NCBI GenBank assembly: GCA_036554605.1
Contig: DATBMY010000539.1
Coordinates: 7,010 to 31,009, forward strand
DNA length: 24,000 nt
DNA from: Blastocatellia bacterium
GTDB lineage: Bacteria; Acidobacteriota; Blastocatellia; UBA7656
Direction: 5' to 3'
Shown piece by piece: positions 3,248 through 11,284 of this stretch (position 1 is the stretch's first letter; every line of letters starts with the position of its first letter). A model generated the notes under the pieces. The model did no database searches, was not told the origin of the DNA, and saw only the letters and a program-made list of their open reading frames with translations. The position numbers were made by a program, and so were the translations under genes.

Positions 3248-4267
3248 TTACTCGCTCACCTCTACGCGCCAGGTGCGGTCGGCGATTAAAGATGTTTCGA
3301 TGTTTACGTCGATGAATCTGCGTATGACCTCGATGTTGGTCGTGGCGTGGCGCGAGAGGCGCAGCGCCGTAAACGATCCGCCGCGCGCGAGCGCAAGTGG
3401 CACGAGAAGCTGGTCCGCGAGGTGCTCGCCGACTGCGGCGCGGGCGGCCAGGTACTCCCGCGCGTTTTTCGCCGCGCGCTCGGCAACGGCTTCGGCTCTT
3501 ACGCCTCGCTCGCCGAATCCGGTGAAGAGCTCCGAAACGTGCTCGCTTTCGATCTCGATCATCACGATGTTTCCCGGCCCGCGCGAGTTATCGACCTTCT
3601 CAGCCGCCAGCCATTCGTCGCGCCACGAAAGCTTACGATTGATGACGCCAAGCTCCCGCTCGGCGATGCTCAGAGGGAGGTTTGCGACGACGGCCCTCGC
3701 GCGCCGGCCGGTCACCTCTCCGCGTTCCAGAAGATCTAGCCTGTGAAGCGCGCCTCCGGGCTCTATGCTTACAGAGAACTTTCCGCCGCCCGCCGGATAA
3801 AAGCCCGGCCGCTCAAGCTCCGCCGTCACTCGGGCGCCCATGCGATTGATGAGCGGAATAAAGCACCTGTCGAGGAAATCGAACGGCGGCGCGAAAGGAT
3901 TGTGCGTGCCGCCTTCGAGCGTCATCGTGGCAGGCTCGGGCGCCAAAAGCAGGGCGGGCAGGACGGTTTGGAGCACGAGCGTCGCGCTCCCGGCCGTGCC
4001 TACGGCGAACGAATGGTAGCCAGCCGTTATGGTCTGCGGTGCAAAGGTAAGCTCGCGCGACCCTATTGCCGCGCCCGACACCTCCGCGCATCCGACCCTC
4101 GCGGCGGCATTCACCGCCGTCAGGTGTTGCCGGAGCAAACCCGGCGTCTTGCGCCCCGCGCGAATGTTCTCTATGCGAAAAGGCTTGCCCGTTACAAGCG
4201 ACAGCCCGAGCGCCGTGCGCAGTACCTGCCCGCCCCCTTCTCCAAATGAACCGTCGATAGTGAACAT
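3248..4267 (-). CDS. rtcA: RNA 3'-terminal phosphate cyclase
   Basis: 339 aa. The N-terminus IDGSFGEGGGQVLRTALGLSLVTGKPFRIENIRAGRKTPGLLRQHLTAV is the canonical RtcA signature. It is the last gene of the rtc operon. Confidence 0.95.
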   Translation of the reverse strand: MFTIDGSFGEGGGQVLRTALGLSLVTGKPFRIENIRAGRKTPGLLRQHLTAVNAAARVGCAEVSGAAIGSRELTFAPQTITAGYHSFAVGTAGSATLVLQTVLPALLLAPEPATMTLEGGTHNPFAPPFDFLDRCFIPLINRMGARVTAELERPGFYPAGGGKFSVSIEPGGALHRLDLLERGEVTGRRARAVVANLPLSIAERELGVINRKLSWRDEWLAAEKVDNSRGPGNIVMIEIESEHVSELFTGFGERGVRAEAVAERAAKNAREYLAARAAVGEHLADQLLVPLALARGGSFTALRLSRHATTNIEVIRRFIDVNIETSLIADRTWRVEVSE

Positions 4268-4282
4268 ATGTTAGCCGGTCTC

Positions 4283-4675
4283 TCACGTTTGAGATGATTT
4301 CTGCTCATTCCAATTCAACCCCGGACCATCAAGCAACAGCGATATGTTATTTAGAATGTCGCGTCCTAATATACCTGCCTCCTGGTTCGCTATCAGAAAT
4401 CGCCCTCTGAAGATACGCTTCAGAAAAACTAAATCGAGCTCTACAACCTGCGCAATACTCGTGCTTCCATCGAAGGTCATCAGTTCATAGTTCAGATTCG
4501 GATCAATAGATATGCCGAGCTGATTCACAGAAGCTCGCGGGACCAAGGTGACATCCGCGCCTGAGTCTATCAGCATGGGTACACCGGACAAAGTAGCGCC
4601 ATCGGTTTGATTGCGGAGAGTTACTCTTGCCAGCGGTGCGGGTGGGGTGAACAGGTCCGCATCATATGCCGGCAT
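4283..4675 (-). CDS. Retropepsin-like (clan AA) aspartic protease domain protein
   Basis: 130 aa with the catalytic-type motif LIDSGADVTLV and the C-terminal ILGRDIL motif typical of single-lobe retropepsin folds. It overlaps the upstream ORF by 14 nt. Spot counts give about 48% GC. Confidence 0.7.
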   Translation of the reverse strand: MPAYDADLFTPPAPLARVTLRNQTDGATLSGVPMLIDSGADVTLVPRASVNQLGISIDPNLNYELMTFDGSTSIAQVVELDLVFLKRIFRGRFLIANQEAGILGRDILNNISLLLDGPGLNWNEQKSSQT

Positions 4676-4877
4676 CGTTTATCTCCTCAATCACTTCTTT
4701 CTTGAAATCCCCTGCCTGCTCAGAGTGCAGCAAACGAGGGCTGCCAATATAAGCAATCGGCTGCGATTCAGCATCGGGTACGACAACATACACCTTAGCC
4801 TTTTCCGGAAGGCGGATATTCTCCGGCAGTCGAACTTTTCCGTTCTCTACGACACCTTCATAAGTAGTACCTTTCAT
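4662..4877 (-). CDS. Small DUF104/AF2212-like (AbrB-like antitoxin-type) protein
   Basis: 71 aa. N-terminus YEGVVENGKVRLPENIRLPEKAKVYVVV matches the G.YENG.I.L.E...LPEG..V.V pattern of AF2212-like antitoxin-family proteins. Strong GGAGGAG RBS 8 nt upstream. Translationally coupled to the protease-like ORF. Confidence 0.6.
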   Translation of the reverse strand: MKGTTYEGVVENGKVRLPENIRLPEKAKVYVVVPDAESQPIAYIGSPRLLHSEQAGDFKKEVIEEINDAGI

Positions 4878-4913
4878 ATTCTATTACTCCTCCGGAGTCG
4901 CTCCCTGACAACC

Positions 4914-5099
4914 TCACGAAAGTCGATTATTAATATCATACTCCTTCGACAAACTCTCGGCTTCTCGCAGGGCTCCATCTAGCGCCCACAGCGCGCTATC
5001 GCGAAATTGCGGCTCAACGCAATATGCAAATCCTTTGGTTAGTCGCAGCAAATCCTTGGCGCAGCCTGGTACTCGATACTTCAGCTGACTCGACAGCAA
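4914..5099 (-). CDS. Hypothetical 61-aa ORF, possibly a gene remnant
   Basis: The only in-frame start is TTG, there is no obvious RBS, and I recognise no motif. It fills the low-GC gap between rtcB and the small protein. Confidence 0.2.
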   Translation of the reverse strand: MLSSQLKYRVPGCAKDLLRLTKGFAYCVEPQFRDSALWALDGALREAESLSKEYDINNRLS

Positions 5100-5103
5100 A
5101 TCT

Positions 5104-7575
5104 CTAATAATGGCCGCTCGACTTCTTGCCGCCTTTCTTCATCTTTTTTATCTTTCTCTCGTCCTCGCCCTTGAGCGACGCAACGGGCCAGAGCCTGTAC
5201 TCTATCTTCGCAAGTCCCGCGCCCGTGACAGACTCGATGACCTCCGCGGAAGGCTTATAACAGGGCGCGGCTTCGTCGATAGGCACGCGGCCGTTGGTAT
5301 TGACAAGTATTCCCGCCTCCGCGTACTCGCGATCAATGTCGCGCTGGCTGAGGCTGCGCGCCGCCTCGCCCCTCGACAACCGTCGACCCGCGCCGTGGTT
5401 TACCGAATAGCCGCTGTTGACCGCCGCCGCTTCCGGGCGAAGCACGTAGCTCCAGTCCTTGTTCGAGCCGGGAATCAAGACCGGATGCCCCGCGTCTTCC
5501 CATATAGTTCCCTTGAGCCCGGGGTGCCCGGCCGGAAAAGCGCGCGTGGCCCCTTTGCGATGCACCCAAACCTGGCCAAACTCCGGGTGCCATTCCTTCT
5601 GCACCAGGTTGTGGCTGATCTCGTATATCAACTCCAGCTCGCCGCCGAATACATCGCGAAACGCTTCGGCAATCTGCTCGAATATGATCAGCCGGTTGAT
5701 GATGGCAAAGTTGCCGCCCGACGCCACCGCGTTCAGGTAATCGCGATAGTGCTCGGACTCGGGCGTGAAGTAACCGAGATCGATATCGGTTATCACCTCC
5801 GGCTTTTCCGCCTTTGCCATCTCGAAATAGTTCGTCGCGAGCCCGTGGCCCCACCCGCGCGAGCCGGTATGCGCCTGAACAAAGAGCGTGCCCGTCTCTT
5901 CGCATCGCTGAAGCTCTATGAAGTGATTGCCTCCGCCGAGCGAGCCGAGCTGCTCGATCCCGCGCTCGGGCCTGCCCTTGCCGCCGAGCGGCGGCTGCCA
6001 ATCGTCGTCAACCGGCAAGCGGTGGCGCTCGGCGCGGCTGCGGTCAAACGTCGCGCCGTATTTTTCGACATAGTATTCAGCGCCGCCGCGCACTAGGTTT
6101 TCAAACTCGCCGCGGTCGAGCCGCCCGAGCTTTACGCTCTTGCCGCCCGCGCCCATGTTGACCTTCTCCATCACCGCGCGGTTGAACGCCATCTTCTTAT
6201 CAAAGGTCGCCGCACCGGCCTCGACATCGGACTTCGCGCTGACCATCCCGCAGTTATGGACAAACACACCTGCGTCTAAAGCAAAGTTTCCGTAGCCCGG
6301 CACCGTCAGACAGTAAACCTCAGCAAATGTGTCAAGTGGCTCGACCGAAACCACTTTGTGATTATAGCCATGCTTCCAATGGCGATGGTTGTGTATGCCA
6401 AAGCCACCGCCAGGTACTTCCTCGCCGCAGTTCTCACAAGTGTATATACGGTGCGCTACTTCTGATGATTTGACCCTACCAGCCTCACTTTTGTTGTAAG
6501 CGATTAAGTACCTCCTGCCCCTCTCGCCATTGCCGTTTGCGATTGCATTTGCTTTTTCAATGCCGGGATTCTGACTTCTATACTTTGCCAGGTTGGCTCT
6601 GCCTCTTTCTGCAAAGTATGCATGACCTTCTACTGTCTGCGCTTTGGCGCCAAGTGCCGCGACTCGCTTCGTTTCAAATTCCGGCGACCTGAAATGAGCG
6701 TTCCTTTCGCTTATGGACCTGTGATAGCTCATATGATCTCTATCGCCCATGAACTGGAGGTTCTCAATTCGGTTGTCGCTCGGATTAAAGTTCTTGTGAT
6801 GTATGATCGTTCTTTGTCCCTCAATAGCAGGTATCTTGCCCAGCAACCCGCATCGGGCCATAATCCAGTGAACCTTATGATTGATACCTGTCGCGGGGTG
6901 CCGTACCATCGTATAGCCATCTTTATCTTTGCGCATATCGAATGGCATCAACGATGTGCCTTCAGACAGAACGCTTGCCTGTCGGTACGTTCCATCGCGA
7001 AGCATAAACTCGTGGTCGGGAGTGCAGATTATCTCTCGTCCATTGTCCAGCGTGACCTTAACAAGGGGAGCATTCACGCGCGTCTTTTTTGCCGTCGCCT
7101 TGGCCACCTCAATCTCATGCTCATCAGAAAGAGCGTAGACCAGTATCTCCTCGCCTGATTGAGCAAGCTGGCCGATTGGATGACTGTAGCCGTCAACCGT
7201 CGGAACAAGAGTATCGGCAACAAAGCACCCGATGTCGTAGCCGACCGGTCCCATCGCTACAGCGCCCTCCTCGCCGTCCGTCAGTATCACGCAGCCCACC
7301 GGCACGCCGTATCCGTAATGCGTGTCCGGGGTGATCACAACGAGCTTCACGCCGGGAAAGCGCGTGGCGTTTACGATCTGGCGATAGATAATATCTTCGG
7401 TCTCGCTCAGCAGCTTCGGCGTCAGAAATATTCTTACAGGCACGTCGCCCGTATCTTCGGTCTGAAGCGTGTAGTATCCTTCGCCGTTCCACCTGGCCAG
7501 ATGCTTCCAGTTGTCGGCGTTCTTCAATCTCTTCGCCAGCTTTAATGCTTTCGCGTCTTCAGTCTGCTTACCCAT
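5104..7575 (-). CDS. rtcB: RNA-splicing ligase RtcB precursor containing an intein
   Basis: 823 aa. The extein carries RtcB motifs: ITPDTHYGYG, GYDIG|CGM (split by the intein), GSRGWGH, SHNLV, IPGSNKDWSYVL, NHGAGRRLSRGEA and APCYKP. Removing the intein leaves 498 aa. GGAGG RBS upstream of the ATG. Confidence 0.95.
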   Translation of the reverse strand: MGKQTEDAKALKLAKRLKNADNWKHLARWNGEGYYTLQTEDTGDVPVRIFLTPKLLSETEDIIYRQIVNATRFPGVKLVVITPDTHYGYGVPVGCVILTDGEEGAVAMGPVGYDIGCFVADTLVPTVDGYSHPIGQLAQSGEEILVYALSDEHEIEVAKATAKKTRVNAPLVKVTLDNGREIICTPDHEFMLRDGTYRQASVLSEGTSLMPFDMRKDKDGYTMVRHPATGINHKVHWIMARCGLLGKIPAIEGQRTIIHHKNFNPSDNRIENLQFMGDRDHMSYHRSISERNAHFRSPEFETKRVAALGAKAQTVEGHAYFAERGRANLAKYRSQNPGIEKANAIANGNGERGRRYLIAYNKSEAGRVKSSEVAHRIYTCENCGEEVPGGGFGIHNHRHWKHGYNHKVVSVEPLDTFAEVYCLTVPGYGNFALDAGVFVHNCGMVSAKSDVEAGAATFDKKMAFNRAVMEKVNMGAGGKSVKLGRLDRGEFENLVRGGAEYYVEKYGATFDRSRAERHRLPVDDDWQPPLGGKGRPERGIEQLGSLGGGNHFIELQRCEETGTLFVQAHTGSRGWGHGLATNYFEMAKAEKPEVITDIDLGYFTPESEHYRDYLNAVASGGNFAIINRLIIFEQIAEAFRDVFGGELELIYEISHNLVQKEWHPEFGQVWVHRKGATRAFPAGHPGLKGTIWEDAGHPVLIPGSNKDWSYVLRPEAAAVNSGYSVNHGAGRRLSRGEAARSLSQRDIDREYAEAGILVNTNGRVPIDEAAPCYKPSAEVIESVTGAGLAKIEYRLWPVASLKGEDERKIKKMKKGGKKSSGHY
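6253..7227 (-). mobile_element. Intein (325 aa, residues C117-N441 of the RtcB precursor) with an HNH_3-type homing endonuclease
   Basis: Block A CFVADTLVPTVDG, block B TPDH, block F VYCLTVPGYGNFAL, block G VFVHN followed by the +1 Cys (CGM). HNH core DGYTMV...HKVHWIMA...IIHHKNFNPSDNRIENLQFM..DHMSYH at about nt 6721-6921. Spot counts give about 50% GC against 60-65% in the exteins. Confidence 0.9.
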
Positions 7576-7629
7576 CTGTTGAATGCCTCCCGCTTATAGG
7601 TTCCCCTACGGCTCAAGCGCGGTCAAGCT

Positions 7630-7740
7630 GGCGCGACAAGTGATGTCGAAAGATTGCTCTACCGTTGAGCTACGGCTCGCACCAGAGTGGAGCCGCCGGG
7701 ATTCGAACCCGGAACATGTACTTCCAACCGCATTCGCGCC
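7630..7740 (-). ncRNA. yrlA: YrlA-like bacterial Y RNA with a permuted tRNA-mimic domain (module 3)
   Basis: Closing helix GGCGCGA/UCGCGCC and second helix GUUGGAAG/CUUUCGAC. T arm CCGGG-UUCGAAU-CCCGG. Acceptor-like helix CGGCUC/GAGCCG closed by a loop. Then UA and the D arm GCUC-AACGGUA-GAGC. It lies between rsr and rtcB. Confidence 0.8.
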
Positions 7741-7756
7741 ACAACCGCTCATACGA

Positions 7757-7857
7757 GTGGCGACAAGATTGGTGAGAGTTCCTCCGGTTGCCCGGAGCGG
7801 GGATTCGAGCCCCAACCTTAACAGGTTGTCCATGTACTCCCACCGGCATTCGCCACC
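7757..7857 (-). ncRNA. Y-RNA-like module 2, variant tRNA-like four-way junction
   Basis: Closing helix GUGGCGA/UCGCCAC and second helix GGUGGGAG/CUCUCACC. T-arm-like GGGG-CUCGAAU-CCCC. GNRA-capped hairpin CUCCGG-GCAA-CCGGAG. Hairpin CAACC-UGUUAA-GGUUG. Confidence 0.6.
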
Positions 7858-7860
7858 GAA

Positions 7861-7922
7861 GGCCGACAAGTTTCTGTTCGAGACGATACATGTAGTAGAT
7901 GTAGTCCCGACGGCATTCGGCC
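7861..7922 (-). ncRNA. Y-RNA-like module 1, minimal 62-nt stem-loop without a tRNA-like domain
   Basis: Closing helix GGCCGA/UCGGCC, the same AUGCCG / CUUG internal-loop signature, second helix UCGGGAC/GUCUCGA and apical hairpin UACAU-CUACUAC-AUGUA. Confidence 0.5.
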
Positions 7923-7929
7923 TTAGAGT

Positions 7930-9483
7930 TTAGAGCTTCACCGCGCTGATGACGCCGACCCAGTGGTCCGCGCTCATGCGGCCCGCGGCGAACTCTGCTA
8001 TCACGTCAAACACCTGATCGGAAAAACCGCCGATGTTCATTATGTCATCGCGCTCCTTCGCCTGCGTCGTGGAGTACGGCTGTATGTCTATGCAGACGAG
8101 ACGGGCGCGCGGGTTGCGCTGTTTGAACTCGCTCCACTCGGCCATGGTAGCCGTGCCACGGCCGCGACCCGCGTCAACCCACGATTCGTTATCCGATACG
8201 TAGATGACAAGGTCGCCCCTGGCCTTGCGCCTGTTCAACAGGGCTAGCGGCGCGCTGCAATTCGTGCCGCCGCCCCCTACGGAGGCGAGCTTCCTCGCGT
8301 TCTTCATAATGCGCTCGCCTCCGTGCAACTTTATATCTACAACATCGCACTCGAACGGCAGCACCTCGGCCTCGGGGTTTGCCCTCAGGACCGATGCCGC
8401 CACCAGCGCCGCCACGTCCACGCAGCGCACCGCCGTCGTCGAGCCGCGCCTGTAGCCGGTCACGGGAGATTGCATAGATCCCGATACGTCCGGCAGTACA
8501 TAAACCTTGCCTTCAACCTTCGGCACATTCGAAGTGGCAATCTCCATCGCCTCTTCGAGCGCCTGCCTGACGGCGCGCGGCACCGCTTCGTCCGCGCTCA
8601 CATAGGCGGCGAGCAGCTGATAAGGAAAGACGCGCGCCGCCCTTATCGCCTTCGGGTCGCGCAGGCGGCCGGCGATAAGCTCCGTCATACCGCGCTTCTC
8701 AAATACTTTGTGGCGCGCAAACGTGTTCAGGTTCTGTCGCGTCATCTGCCACGTAGCGTTGCGGGCAATCTCGGCCCACTCGCTCGCGCCAAGCTCGAGC
8801 GCCGTAAGCATCTGAAACGGCACGTCGGGAACCGCGCGCGTGGCGCCTCGCTTGAACGCCTCGAAGTCGCGCACGAGTCCGGGGAGCGCATCCTCGTCGT
8901 GCTGCTTGCCTATCAAGTATCCGAACAGCGACCGGCGGCTCGCGCTACCCGGCTTCGGGTGGACCATCTTTATGATGTCGGCCATCGAAGGCTGCTGGCC
9001 CACGCTTGCCCGGAATACCGATTCATCGTCGCGCGCTTCAAGCCAGCCTCGCACCATGCGCTTCGGGGCAGACCCGAGCGACTTGCGGCCTACCGCGCCC
9101 GATCTCATTATCTGAACAAAGGTGCGCAGCATTCGGCCGTTGTCGATCACGCGCGGAAAGATCTCGGTGAACAGCTTCCGGTCGCGCACCGAAAGCAGCG
9201 CGCAAAGCAGCGCGGGCATGTCCTTCATAAACCCTCGCTCGCGACAATAAACGGCCGTCAGCGCAAGAAACTCGCCCGACACGCGGTTGGATAGCTCAAG
9301 CACGGTCTTGAGCTGATCTTCGGCCCTCGCATAGAAGGTCGAGTTCAGGCACCCGGTCGCGGCATACTGCGCAAGCTCCGCCTCGGGCGCAAACCTGTAG
9401 GCCGGCGCGCCCTCTTCGTTTCGCGCGTCCGCGGCCGCAACGAGCCAGCCGCGCAGCGAATGAAACAGATTCCTGTTTGCCAT
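7930..9483 (-). CDS. rsr: Ro60-related TROVE/vWA ribonucleoprotein (Rsr)
   Basis: 517 aa. TROVE-type N-terminus (NEEGAPAYRF...TGCLNSTFYA). C-terminal vWA domain with the metal-ion-dependent adhesion site (MIDAS) motif DVSGSM. Sits in an operon with Y-RNA-like elements and rtcB. Confidence 0.92.
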   Translation of the reverse strand: MANRNLFHSLRGWLVAAADARNEEGAPAYRFAPEAELAQYAATGCLNSTFYARAEDQLKTVLELSNRVSGEFLALTAVYCRERGFMKDMPALLCALLSVRDRKLFTEIFPRVIDNGRMLRTFVQIMRSGAVGRKSLGSAPKRMVRGWLEARDDESVFRASVGQQPSMADIIKMVHPKPGSASRRSLFGYLIGKQHDEDALPGLVRDFEAFKRGATRAVPDVPFQMLTALELGASEWAEIARNATWQMTRQNLNTFARHKVFEKRGMTELIAGRLRDPKAIRAARVFPYQLLAAYVSADEAVPRAVRQALEEAMEIATSNVPKVEGKVYVLPDVSGSMQSPVTGYRRGSTTAVRCVDVAALVAASVLRANPEAEVLPFECDVVDIKLHGGERIMKNARKLASVGGGGTNCSAPLALLNRRKARGDLVIYVSDNESWVDAGRGRGTATMAEWSEFKQRNPRARLVCIDIQPYSTTQAKERDDIMNIGGFSDQVFDVIAEFAAGRMSADHWVGVISAVKL

Positions 9484-9531: not shown

Positions 9532-9547
9532 CGCACGCGCCGTGCCG
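9532..9547 (-). promoter_or_regulatory. Candidate sigma54 (-24/-12) promoter of the rsr-Y RNA-rtcBA operon
   Basis: The - strand reads CGGCACGGCGCGTGCG against the consensus TGGCAC-N5-TTGC, with GG and GC at the correct 10-nt spacing. It lies 49-64 nt upstream of the rsr ATG and faces away from the sigma54 activator gene rtcR. Confidence 0.55.
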
Positions 9548-9679: not shown

Positions 9680-11284
9680 ATGACGGAAAAGGATCAGGTA
9701 ATCATAGGGTTGCTCGGCCCGTCGCTCGACAACGGGCTTGGGATGGATCGCTGGGAGCGGTGGCGGCCCTCGGTCGCGCTTTGCCAGCACCAGGATCTTT
9801 TGATAAAGCGATTCGAGCTTTTATACGAGCGGAAATTCGGGCGGCTCGCCGAGCAGGTCGCCGACGACATCGCGCACTGCTCGCCCGAAACCACGGTGCG
9901 CAAAGCGGAGGTGAAATTCGACGACCCGTGGGACTTCGAGCAGGTCTATGGGGCGCTGCACGATTTCGCGCGCGCTTACAGGTTCGACACCGAGCGCGAG
10001 CAATACCTCATACACATCACCACCGGAACGCACGTCGCGCAGATATGCATGTTCTTGCTCACCGAGTCGCGCTACTTTCCGGCGAAGCTCATACAGACGT
10101 CGCCGCCCGACCGGCGCGACAAAAAAGGGGCGGGCCGTTTCGAGATCATCGATCTCGACCTGTCGAAGTACGACCGCATAGCGTCACGCTTCCAGCAGGA
10201 GCAGCGCGAGGCGTTGCAGTTTCTCAAGTCGGGCATAGAGACGCGCAATCCGGGTTTCAACCAGCTTATAAGCCGGGTCGAGCAGGTAGCCATAAATTCC
10301 GCCGACCCGGTCTTGCTGATGGGGCCCACGGGCGCGGGCAAATCCCGCCTCGCGCGTCGCATATATGAGCTCAAGCGCGCGCGCCATCAGGTGAAGGGCG
10401 AGTTCGTCGAGGTCAACTGCGCCACCCTGCGCGGAGACGGCGCGATGTCGGCGCTGTTCGGGCACGTGAAGGGATCATTTACGGGAGCGGTGCGCGACCG
10501 CGCCGGGCACCTGCGCGCCGCCGACAACGGGCTTCTCTTTCTTGATGAGATCGGCAGCCTCGGCCTCGACGAGCAGGCGATGCTGCTTCGCGCGCTCGAA
10601 GACAAGAGCTTCTTTCCGCTCGGCGGCGACCGCCAGGTCCGTAGCGATTTTCAGCTGGTCGCCGGGACCAACAGCGACCTCGCCGTAGCGGTTCGCGATG
10701 GACGATTCAGAGAGGATTTGCTCGCGCGAATAAACCTCTGGACGTTTCGGCTGCCGGGGCTGCGCGAGCGCATCGAGGATATAGAGCCGAACCTTCAATA
10801 CGAGCTTGACGAGTACGCCCGCCGCGCCGGCAAGCAGGTGACCTTCAGCCGCGAGGCGCGCGAAAAGTTTCTGAGGTTCGCCGCCTCGCACGAAGCGCGG
10901 TGGTCGGGCAATTTTCGCGACCTCAACGGCGCGATCATTCGCATGGCGACGCTCGCGCCCGGCGGGAGAATTTCGATTGAAGTGGTCGAAGAAGAGATAG
11001 CGCGGCTGCGCCTGGCATGGCAAACTCAATCGGCGGGCGAGGGCGGCGACCTCGTCGAGCGAATCGTCGGACGCGAGCGGGCCGAAGAGATCGATTATTT
11101 CGACCGCTTGCAGCTCGCCTCGGTGCTGAAGGTATGCCGCGAGTCGCGCTCGCTTTCCGACGCGGGCCGCGCGCTCTTTACGGCGTCGCGCGGGCGCAAG
11201 AAGAGCGTCAACGATGCCGACCGCTTGAGAAAATATCTGATGCGGTTCGGGCTCGAATGGCGACAGCTTAAAGATATGCTTTGA
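9680..11284 (+). CDS. rtcR: Sigma54-dependent transcriptional activator RtcR (CARF domain, AAA+ domain, HTH)
   Basis: The N-terminus closely resembles my recollection of E. coli RtcR (RWERWRPSVALCQ...NPWDFEQVYGALHDFARAYRF...YLIHITTGTHVAQICMFLL...RYFPAKLIQTSPP). Walker A GPTGAGKS. GSFTGA (GAFTGA-type) loop. Confidence 0.95.
   Translation: MTEKDQVIIGLLGPSLDNGLGMDRWERWRPSVALCQHQDLLIKRFELLYERKFGRLAEQVADDIAHCSPETTVRKAEVKFDDPWDFEQVYGALHDFARAYRFDTEREQYLIHITTGTHVAQICMFLLTESRYFPAKLIQTSPPDRRDKKGAGRFEIIDLDLSKYDRIASRFQQEQREALQFLKSGIETRNPGFNQLISRVEQVAINSADPVLLMGPTGAGKSRLARRIYELKRARHQVKGEFVEVNCATLRGDGAMSALFGHVKGSFTGAVRDRAGHLRAADNGLLFLDEIGSLGLDEQAMLLRALEDKSFFPLGGDRQVRSDFQLVAGTNSDLAVAVRDGRFREDLLARINLWTFRLPGLRERIEDIEPNLQYELDEYARRAGKQVTFSREAREKFLRFAASHEARWSGNFRDLNGAIIRMATLAPGGRISIEVVEEEIARLRLAWQTQSAGEGGDLVERIVGRERAEEIDYFDRLQLASVLKVCRESRSLSDAGRALFTASRGRKKSVNDADRLRKYLMRFGLEWRQLKDML

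Follow-up and report, generated by a model that had tools for sequence, protein, structure and literature searches.

How can an RtcB ligase work when its metal-binding cysteine motif is interrupted by 325 additional residues? The question is raised by the rtcB gene in a 24,000-nt stretch of the Blastocatellia bacterium contig DATBMY010000539.1 (Acidobacteriota; assembly GCA_036554605.1), which we refer to as the window. Our answer, to which we assign a probability of roughly 0.85, is that the insertion is a full-length, mobile class 1 intein with an in-frame HNH homing endonuclease, located directly before the codon of the metal-bridging cysteine. For annotation, this means that the gene product is to be described as an RtcB of 498 aa and an intein of 325 aa rather than as one 823-aa enzyme.

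Insertion point and host enzyme

The interruption itself is confirmed, as RtcB in this soil-type Acidobacteria window is split by an intein exactly at the metal-binding cysteine. Pfam RtcB matches the precursor open reading frame (ORF) in two pieces (E=1.6e-90), and the insertion point is GYDIG/CGM (here and below, the slash marks the point of insertion). Cys117 of the precursor, which opens the string CFVADTLV, is Cys1 of the intein (codon 7225..7227); TPDH corresponds to intein residues 69-72, and Asn441, which closes VFVHN, is encoded by codon 6253..6255. The first-pass annotation, made from the sequence alone, had placed the element at 6253-7227 with these same motifs and the +1 Cys, and all of them match exactly by string position. 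The strings that it quoted for the nuclease (HKVHWIMA, IIHHKNFNPSDNRIENLQFM, DH..YH, and CENC...HNHRH) were likewise all found in the translation.

With residues 117-441 excised, the resulting 498-aa RtcB aligns with the structures of Thermus, Pyrococcus, and human RtcB (E=1e-59 to 1e-50) with no gap at the junction, and this comparison with solved enzymes upholds the insertion point. Counting along the alignment to 1uc2 and 4dwr, the +1 Cys is equivalent to Cys98 of Pyrococcus horikoshii (Pho) RtcB, and Asp113, three residues before it, to Pho Asp95. The motifs GGGNHF, HTGSRG, ISHN, and NHGAGR of the C-extein are the equivalents of Pho His203, His234, His329, and His404, the last being the nucleophile that accepts GMP. 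By alignment to solved RtcBs, the spliced sequence keeps all metal and guanosine monophosphate (GMP) ligands, the motif GYDIGCG included. The ligands listed for RtcB in Pho numbering are Asp95, Cys98, His203, His234, and His329, with Cys98 bridging metals M1 and M2 and Asp95 binding M2 (PMC9745838), and in the Pho protein the splice junction is Cys98 (PMC4150793). The equivalence of the +1 Cys to Pho Cys98, together with the sharing of this site with the Pho intein, had been put forward at the first reading and is borne out by the alignment and by these two publications. The +1 Cys is thus predicted to serve twice, as nucleophile in splicing and as the active-site cysteine that bridges the metals. 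As the intein splits the Asp and Cys metal ligands, we infer that the precursor cannot assemble the binuclear site.

At its C terminus, the enzyme carries a Lys-rich tail of about 20 aa (EDERKIKKMKKGGKKSSGHY; 5107..5166, minus strand) past the usual ...SLKG end. Comparable tails, ending in HY or HF, were seen in four other Acidobacteria RtcBs (P0061, P0068, P0103, and P0115).

Splicing domain and class assignment

Both halves of a Hint splicing domain are present at the ends of the insertion. Pfam Intein_splicing (PF14890) matches with E=4e-21 to 4.9e-20 (75.8 bits; cutoff, 35.8), and the matches to the NCBIfam models intein_Nterm and intein_Cterm reach 43-46 and 22-25 bits (cutoffs, 24.5 and 15.6, respectively). 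With the HNH_3 match given below, all four family models thus scored above their curated cutoffs. Residue conservation was counted over 30 bona fide homologous inteins and five free-standing relatives. C1, T69, H324, and N325 are present in 30/30 inteins and H72 in 29/30. Like the window protein, each of the 29 intein-bearing relatives in the alignment has Cys at the +1 position.

The AlphaFold2 (AF2) model of the intein, built with 35 homologues, has a mean predicted local distance difference test (pLDDT) score of 90.1, with both splicing halves at 95-98. A Foldseek search of the whole intein against the PDB retrieved the Hint domains of the DnaE, DnaB, and RecA inteins (E about 1e-6; probability, 1.00); these matches were to Hint domains only, with none to a nuclease. 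The intein sequence searched against the PDB gave marginal Hint matches only (E=0.007 or weaker) and again no nuclease. A comparison with viral models matched the entire architecture to phage inteins, the best being a Hint protein of Bacillus phage SP-15 (template modeling [TM] score, 0.71).

Block F of the C-terminal half carries a cysteine, Cys306, at position F:4 (6310..6312, minus strand), which all 30 homologous inteins and all five free-standing relatives share. In class 1 inteins, F:4 is usually Asp. Cys306 could assist catalysis or act as a redox partner of Cys1. Because of this invariant F:4 Cys, a class 3 assignment was considered; class 3 inteins are defined by the WCT triplet, formed by Trp at B:12, Cys at F:4, and Thr at G:5, and usually have no nucleophile at residue 1 (PMC6195587). 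In the window, B:12 is Phe74, G:5 is Val323, and Cys1 is present, so class 3 was discarded. The assignment to class 1 follows from the absence of the WCT triplet and the presence of Cys1.

Nuclease module

Between the two splicing halves lies a module that we divide into an HNH core of the beta-beta-alpha-metal type, a helical region, and a zinc finger (Table 1). The core is detected by Pfam HNH_3 (26.8-27.4 bits; cutoff, 24.8) and by phrog_7545, annotated as 'HNH endonuclease' (E=1e-11). Its six His and Asn residues are conserved in 30/30 inteins and 5/5 free-standing relatives, and in the AF2 model it consists of two strands (140-144 and 157-161) followed by a helix (162-175). When the nuclease insert was modeled alone, the best PDB fold was I-HmuI (1u3e; probability, 0.97), a weak match with E=0.057, a TM score of about 0.3, and 17% identity. 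No LAGLIDADG signal was found in the window intein with Pfam, PHROG, or the fold comparison of the nuclease. The proposal that the nuclease is of the HNH rather than the LAGLIDADG type is therefore well founded, as it rests on the HNH_3 score above cutoff, the PHROG match, and I-HmuI as the top solved fold.

Residues 181-258 are all-helical in both AF2 models (pLDDT about 70-90), and no family match was found for them; they may be a linker or a DNA-binding region. The segment that follows has been described as a possible CCHH zinc knuckle. Its ligands C264, C267, H281, and H286 are indeed conserved in 29-30/30 inteins, and the term knuckle is the part that needs changing, as the spacing and the modeled fold (a beta-hairpin plus a helix at 274-286) are better read as a C2H2-type finger. 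The x13 spacing is one residue above the canonical C-x2-4-C-x12-H-x3-5-H, and the version found in relatives has x12. A 39-aa finger segment from one relative covers positions 1-23 of the 23 in Pfam zf-C2H2 (E=0.0046), at 17.8 bits, below the cutoff of 25.2.

The complete nuclease module is rare: of 1.84 billion clusters, 162 have a representative that matches it at E<=1e-3. Its full-length matches are found mostly in proteins of about 700-800 aa, which is the size of RtcB-intein precursors (hosts were judged by this size).

Relatives, mini-inteins, and empty sites

A search with the intein alone against 5.8 billion proteins returned 525 relatives, the best with 77% identity. Taxonomy and host protein were read from the best 120 of these 525; nearly all are RtcB fragments or precursors, and they come from Pyrinomonadaceae, other Acidobacteriota, Cyanobacteria, Chloroflexota, Armatimonadota, and other groups. 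Where both junctions are visible, the intein of these relatives sits at ...D[IV]G/CG..., in two RtcB subfamilies of the GPVGYDIG and AAVGVDIG types. The same DIG/CG site also holds 29 mini-inteins of 150-250 aa, with many different internal deletion endpoints, which indicates that the endonuclease has decayed independently.

To look at the host gene on its own, the spliced extein was scanned against one genome per GTDB species, which gave 201 relatives. The best 80 were examined; they belong to Blastocatellia, Pyrinomonadaceae, or Acidobacteriota metagenome-assembled genomes, with 72-87% identity. In all of these 80, rtcB is uninterrupted at ...D[IV][GS]/C..., which shows that the nearest known rtcB alleles are empty at the intein site.

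Homologous inteins were found in viral contigs too (L087-L163, from IMG/VR; for example, L158, 3001..3984), where they interrupt rtcB at DIG/CG with up to 54% identity. Phages are a plausible vehicle for the spread of the intein between phyla. Viral contigs also carry related Hint-HNH inteins in other phage proteins, with junctions such as ...GKSTYAR/C and ...LFRDYD/C.

We also found free-standing ORFs of 326-331 aa with homology to the intein over its whole length (45-48% identity; Table 1). They have lost T69, H324, and N325 (as well as H72 in 4/5) and keep all HNH and finger residues. In the three contexts that could be read (3/3), an rtcB of about 405 aa with no interruption lies 80-120 bp downstream of the ORF. 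From these residues and positions, they appear to be former inteins that moved out of the host ORF and now stand alone as HNH endonucleases beside their former target.

In many intein-bearing relatives, rtcB is also split at a second position, GGG/NHF, in the motif of the metal ligand His203; this split is absent from the window. In Phormidium sp. (CP143273.1; L001, about 7431..7821), the GGG/NHF insert is about 390 nt long, the preceding exon ends in U, the insert ends in G, and it matches Rfam Intron_gpI with 29 bits (E=1.6e-5), below the gathering score. The corresponding gap in L002 (7563..8590), in L084 (the P0003 contig), and in the P0001 contig holds an ORF with a weak or faint LAGLIDADG_3 signal, and the L002 insert had no Rfam match. 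Judging from these boundaries and scores, the GGG/NHF insert is probably a group I intron that occurs in bacterial rtcB alongside the intein. A literature search turned up no paper describing a GGG/NHF group I intron in rtcB.

Composition and selection

The G+C content is 0.502 for the intein, whereas the N- and C-exteins have values of 0.572 and 0.618, respectively. The first-pass figure of about 50% for the intein was therefore right, and its 60-65% for the exteins was slightly high for the N-extein. At third codon positions (GC3), the intein has 0.53, the exteins have 0.73 and 0.78, and 15 other host gene segments in the window range from 0.65 to 0.79. In a 40-codon sliding window, GC3 drops at the N junction (0.80 to 0.57) and climbs at the C junction (0.50 to 0.90). 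With GC3 at 0.80 and 0.90 right at the junctions, there is no sign of a co-conversion tract, that is, of a low-GC extein flank beside the intein. In four other hosts, the intein GC3 is also below that of the exteins, yet it tracks the host, and the gap is largest in the window.

Compared with the available intein DNAs (L083, L084, L001, and L002), the proportion of synonymous differences (pS) ranges from 0.69 to 1.16, so that nearly all segments are saturated, while the proportion of nonsynonymous differences (pN) is 0.11-0.35 in every intein domain (0.23-0.35 in residues 181-258, where pS is saturated). As this saturation makes dN/dS uncomputable for nearly all segments, pN and pS are given instead. 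The low pN with saturated pS indicates purifying selection on all parts, including the nuclease and the finger. The saturation of pS in these comparisons also means that the sampled inteins include no close donor.

By its composition and distribution, the element looks foreign and mobile. The proposal of a recent horizontal invasion agrees with the composition and with the 80/80 empty sites; no donor can be named and no date set for it, as synonymous sites are saturated. The word recent would accordingly draw its whole support from composition and patchy distribution.

Comparison with known systems

The closest parallel in terms of site is the intein of P. horikoshii RtcB (PH1602), which shares with the window the host enzyme, the insertion point, and the use of the metal-bridging +1 Cys as splice junction. 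In the window, in contrast, the host is a bacterial, Rsr-linked RtcB, and the likeness described here is one of site and host enzyme. Two NCBI models for 'intein-containing RtcB' have been curated. NCBIfam NF038162 describes an RtcB with a much longer insert starting from the same profile position, and the window intein matches it weakly (E=0.008, over its first 82 residues). To NF052663 ('RtcB_rel_intein2'), the window intein alone matches with E=5e-85 over profile positions 78-310, and the insertion site is shared. However, the whole window protein, with 413 bits, falls short of the curated cutoff of 1050 and is not a member; the intein segment of the model spans about 233 positions versus 325 residues in the window, and its extein belongs to a different RtcB subfamily, whereas the window has the GPVGYDIG type with a Lys-rich tail.

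The combination of Hint and HNH instead of LAGLIDADG is shared with the in-frame HNH inteins of phages and cyanobacteria, and the whole-model fold of the window intein matches the inteins of phage terminase, DNA polymerase, and ribonucleotide reductase. In-frame HNH inteins were reportedly first described by Dalgaard et al. in 1997. They have been known since that year and are considered rare, noncanonical, and mostly phage-borne (bioRxiv 10.1101/2025.01.02.630785). For the nuclease, the reference is I-HmuI of phage SPO1 (PDB 1u3e), a site-specific homing nuclease with the beta-beta-alpha-metal core that we propose for the window module. I-HmuI is intron encoded and free-standing. The likeness to it covers the HNH core; a C2H2-like finger is proposed for the window module.

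The novelty implied at the first reading was overstated. RtcB inteins have been tabulated, with 27 bacterial and 10 archaeal cases, Cyanobacteria included (PMC4760082), besides the two NCBI curated models. RtcB inteins, HNH inteins, and the insertion site are thus all already described or curated, and the window adds a new example.

Weighing the alternatives

Several points weigh against a mobile, splicing intein. Splicing and DNA cleavage are both deduced from the sequence; the match of the nuclease domain alone to a solved structure is weak (I-HmuI, E=0.057); and the window's own finger segment has no Pfam zf-C2H2 match. The closest intein is 77% identical with saturated pS, and neither current mobility nor the date of invasion is demonstrable. 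The scan with the spliced extein ranks contiguous matches first, and it may under-sample intein-bearing relatives among the 201 and gives no estimate of their frequency. The intein could be one that splices but no longer moves, a fixed passenger in which the HNH core and the finger are kept for structural support or generic DNA binding. Synonymous divergence that is saturated with respect to all known relatives would agree with such an old lineage, and the many mini-inteins at the site indicate that the endonuclease is often dispensable and decays. We nevertheless consider an immobile passenger unlikely, as the catalytic-type His and Asn residues and the zinc ligands are all intact and invariant, and the pN/pS values of the HNH and finger segments are as low as those of the Hint halves. 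Preservation of the module in free-standing ORFs without splicing residues argues that the nuclease itself is selected, and long vertical residence is hard to reconcile with the unameliorated GC3 and with the 80/80 empty sites (best 80 of 201).

The intein could also be a conditional switch, in which oxidation or Zn/Cu would reversibly inhibit splicing through Cys1, the +1 Cys, and Cys306, adding a layer of control to an RtcR-controlled operon. There is a precedent in the DnaB intein of Mycobacterium smegmatis, whose catalytic Cys forms a disulfide with H2O2, so that splicing is blocked in a reversible manner (PMC6195587). Here, the +1 residue is itself an oxidation-prone metal ligand of RtcB (PMC9745838), Cys306 is invariant in 30/30 inteins, and the neighboring rtcR, rsr, Y RNA, and rtcA make the setting truly stress related (see below). 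However, no sequence feature separates a regulated from a constitutive intein, the 80 closest rtcB genes work without an intein, so that the host needs no switch, and the distribution and the decay into mini-inteins form the pattern of a selfish element. We therefore regard as improbable a redox- or metal-gated fuse, whose three thiols would hold the precursor back during oxidative or Zn/Cu stress and let active ligase form on recovery; the window itself offers no evidence of a new mechanism, and the regulatory role of splicing raised at the first reading is speculation. The insertion might, finally, be no intein at all and instead a domain that stays in the protein for good or a bacterial intein-like (BIL) domain capable of cleavage but not of ligation; BIL and Hedgehog Hint domains are indeed among the weaker Foldseek matches. 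This is scarcely credible, as the window protein has the canonical Cys1, TxxH, HN, and +1 Cys, each of them conserved in 29-30/30, the intein-specific N- and C-terminal models are above their cutoffs, a retained domain would destroy the enzyme by splitting the catalytic DxxC, and the homologous sites are empty in relatives. A full-length, mobile class 1 intein remains our preferred reading.

Proposed splicing and homing mechanism

The steps of splicing are modeled on established intein chemistry and those of homing on the biology of homing endonucleases. The rsr-Y RNA-rtcB-rtcA transcript would be translated into the 91-kDa precursor, in which Asp113 and Cys442 would be 325 residues apart and the binuclear Mn site unable to form. 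Cys1 would undergo an N-S acyl shift, the +1 Cys would attack the resulting thioester to give a branched intermediate, and cyclization of Asn325 would free the 36-kDa intein. A final S-N shift would restore the GYDIG-CGM peptide and yield a 55-kDa active RtcB.

The HNH domain of the free intein, with the helical region and the zinc finger to position it, may then nick or cut an intein-less rtcB around ...GGCTACGACATCGGG/TGCGGGATGGTC..., the reconstituted intein-less target site being GCGATGGGACCGGTCGGCTACGACATCGGG/TGCGGGATGGTCAGCGCGAAGTCCGATGTC. Repair would copy the intein into the cut allele. By sitting on an invariant catalytic motif, the element would find its target conserved, and its imprecise loss would be lethal to RtcB function.

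Operon context

The order of the locus, rtcR / rsr-Y RNA-rtcB-rtcA, is canonical (Table 1), and the presence of RtcR with its sigma-54 domain, rsr, Y RNA, and rtcA justifies the wording stress-induced repair operon that had been used for it. A search at the Rfam gathering thresholds found nothing in the window, and the Y RNAs emerged from a search by E value. The YrlA-like RNA in the rsr-rtcB spacer has a tRNA-like module, and weaker Y-RNA-like matches to YrlA (25.6 bits) and YrlB (24.4 bits) lie at 7754..7856 and 7856..7928, respectively, on the minus strand. Taken together, the three matches suggest that this Acidobacteria rsr-rtcB operon has Y RNAs arrayed in tandem.

Upstream of rsr, about 50 nt from its start codon and facing rtcR, we found CGGCACGGCGCGTGC (GG-N10-GC; 9533..9547, minus strand), which is suggestive of a sigma-54 promoter by its sequence and position. 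A sigma-54 search of the window with a two-mismatch consensus gave 20 matches, versus 21 expected from shuffles, that is, no enrichment.

The rtcB-rtcA spacer (4268..5103) is 836 bp long and of low GC, and it contains two small overlapping ORFs at 4283..4877 (minus strand) with a GC3 of 0.47-0.51, like that of the intein. The ORF of 130 aa is retropepsin-like (gag-asp_proteas, 31.8 bits; Asp_protease_2), and no family match was found for the ORF of 71 aa. These ORFs look like a second foreign insertion in the operon.

TABLE 1 Coordinates of the rtcB precursor, its intein, the neighboring genes, and the free-standing relatives of the intein
Feature	Position	Strand	Details
rtcB precursor, including the intein	5104..7575	-	823 aa, ~91 kDa; ORF list; Pfam RtcB, Intein_splicing, HNH_3
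N-extein, residues 1-116	7228..7575	-	Ends in ...GPVGYDIG; holds Asp113; GC3 0.73
Whole intein, residues 117-441 of the precursor	6253..7227	-	325 aa, ~36 kDa; class 1
N-terminal Hint half, intein residues 1-95	6943..7227	-	Block A Cys1; block B T69-P-D-H72; TIGR01445 intein_Nterm
HNH (beta-beta-alpha-metal) core, intein residues ~96-180	6688..6942	-	H143, H144, N152, N156, H165, H169
Putative helical linker or DNA-binding region, intein residues 181-258	6454..6687	-	AF2 models
C2H2-like zinc finger, intein residues 259-290	6358..6453	-	C264-x2-C267-x13-H281-x4-H286
C-terminal Hint half, intein residues 291-325	6253..6357	-	Block F 'EVYCLTVPGYGNF' with Cys306 at F:4; block G '...GVFVHN'; TIGR01443 intein_Cterm
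+1 Cys	6250..6252	-	Cys442 of the precursor, Cys117 of the spliced RtcB
C-extein	5104..6252	-	382 aa plus stop codon; GC3 0.78
rtcA, RNA 3'-phosphate cyclase, downstream of rtcB	3248..4267	-	Pfam RTC E=1.2e-77; RTC_insert
YrlA-like Y RNA, rsr-rtcB spacer	7627..7740	-	Rfam RF02553, 67.3 bits (gathering score 69), E=2.7e-14, full-length
rsr (Ro60-like), first operon gene	7930..9483	-	vWA_Ro60 E=5e-17; TROVE 25 bits (cutoff 23)
rtcR, sigma-54-dependent activator	9680..11284	+ (divergent)	Pfam RtcR E=2.8e-86; Sigma54_activat E=6e-47
Free-standing ex-intein ORF, Kofleriaceae JABFXX010000408.1 (L085)	4001..4996		
Free-standing ex-intein ORF, L164	2095..3075		
Free-standing ex-intein ORF, P0056 contig			

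Implications

As a compact, Cys-dependent intein with a presumably specific nuclease, the element has possible uses in protein engineering, and it is a possible test case for conditional splicing at a redox-sensitive active-site cysteine. If the improbable gated fuse were true, induction of the Rsr/Y-RNA/RtcB operon would be coupled to a posttranslational checkpoint. For the family, the window intein belongs to one coherent lineage of HNH and zinc-finger inteins that targets a single RtcB site across Acidobacteria, Cyanobacteria, Chloroflexota, and phage-like contigs, and in which all the stages of the homing cycle are seen: full-length elements, mini-inteins derived by deletion, and empty sites. 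Inteins are known to settle at the catalytic residue that is most conserved in a nucleic-acid enzyme, and this pattern now gains an example from the Acidobacteria.

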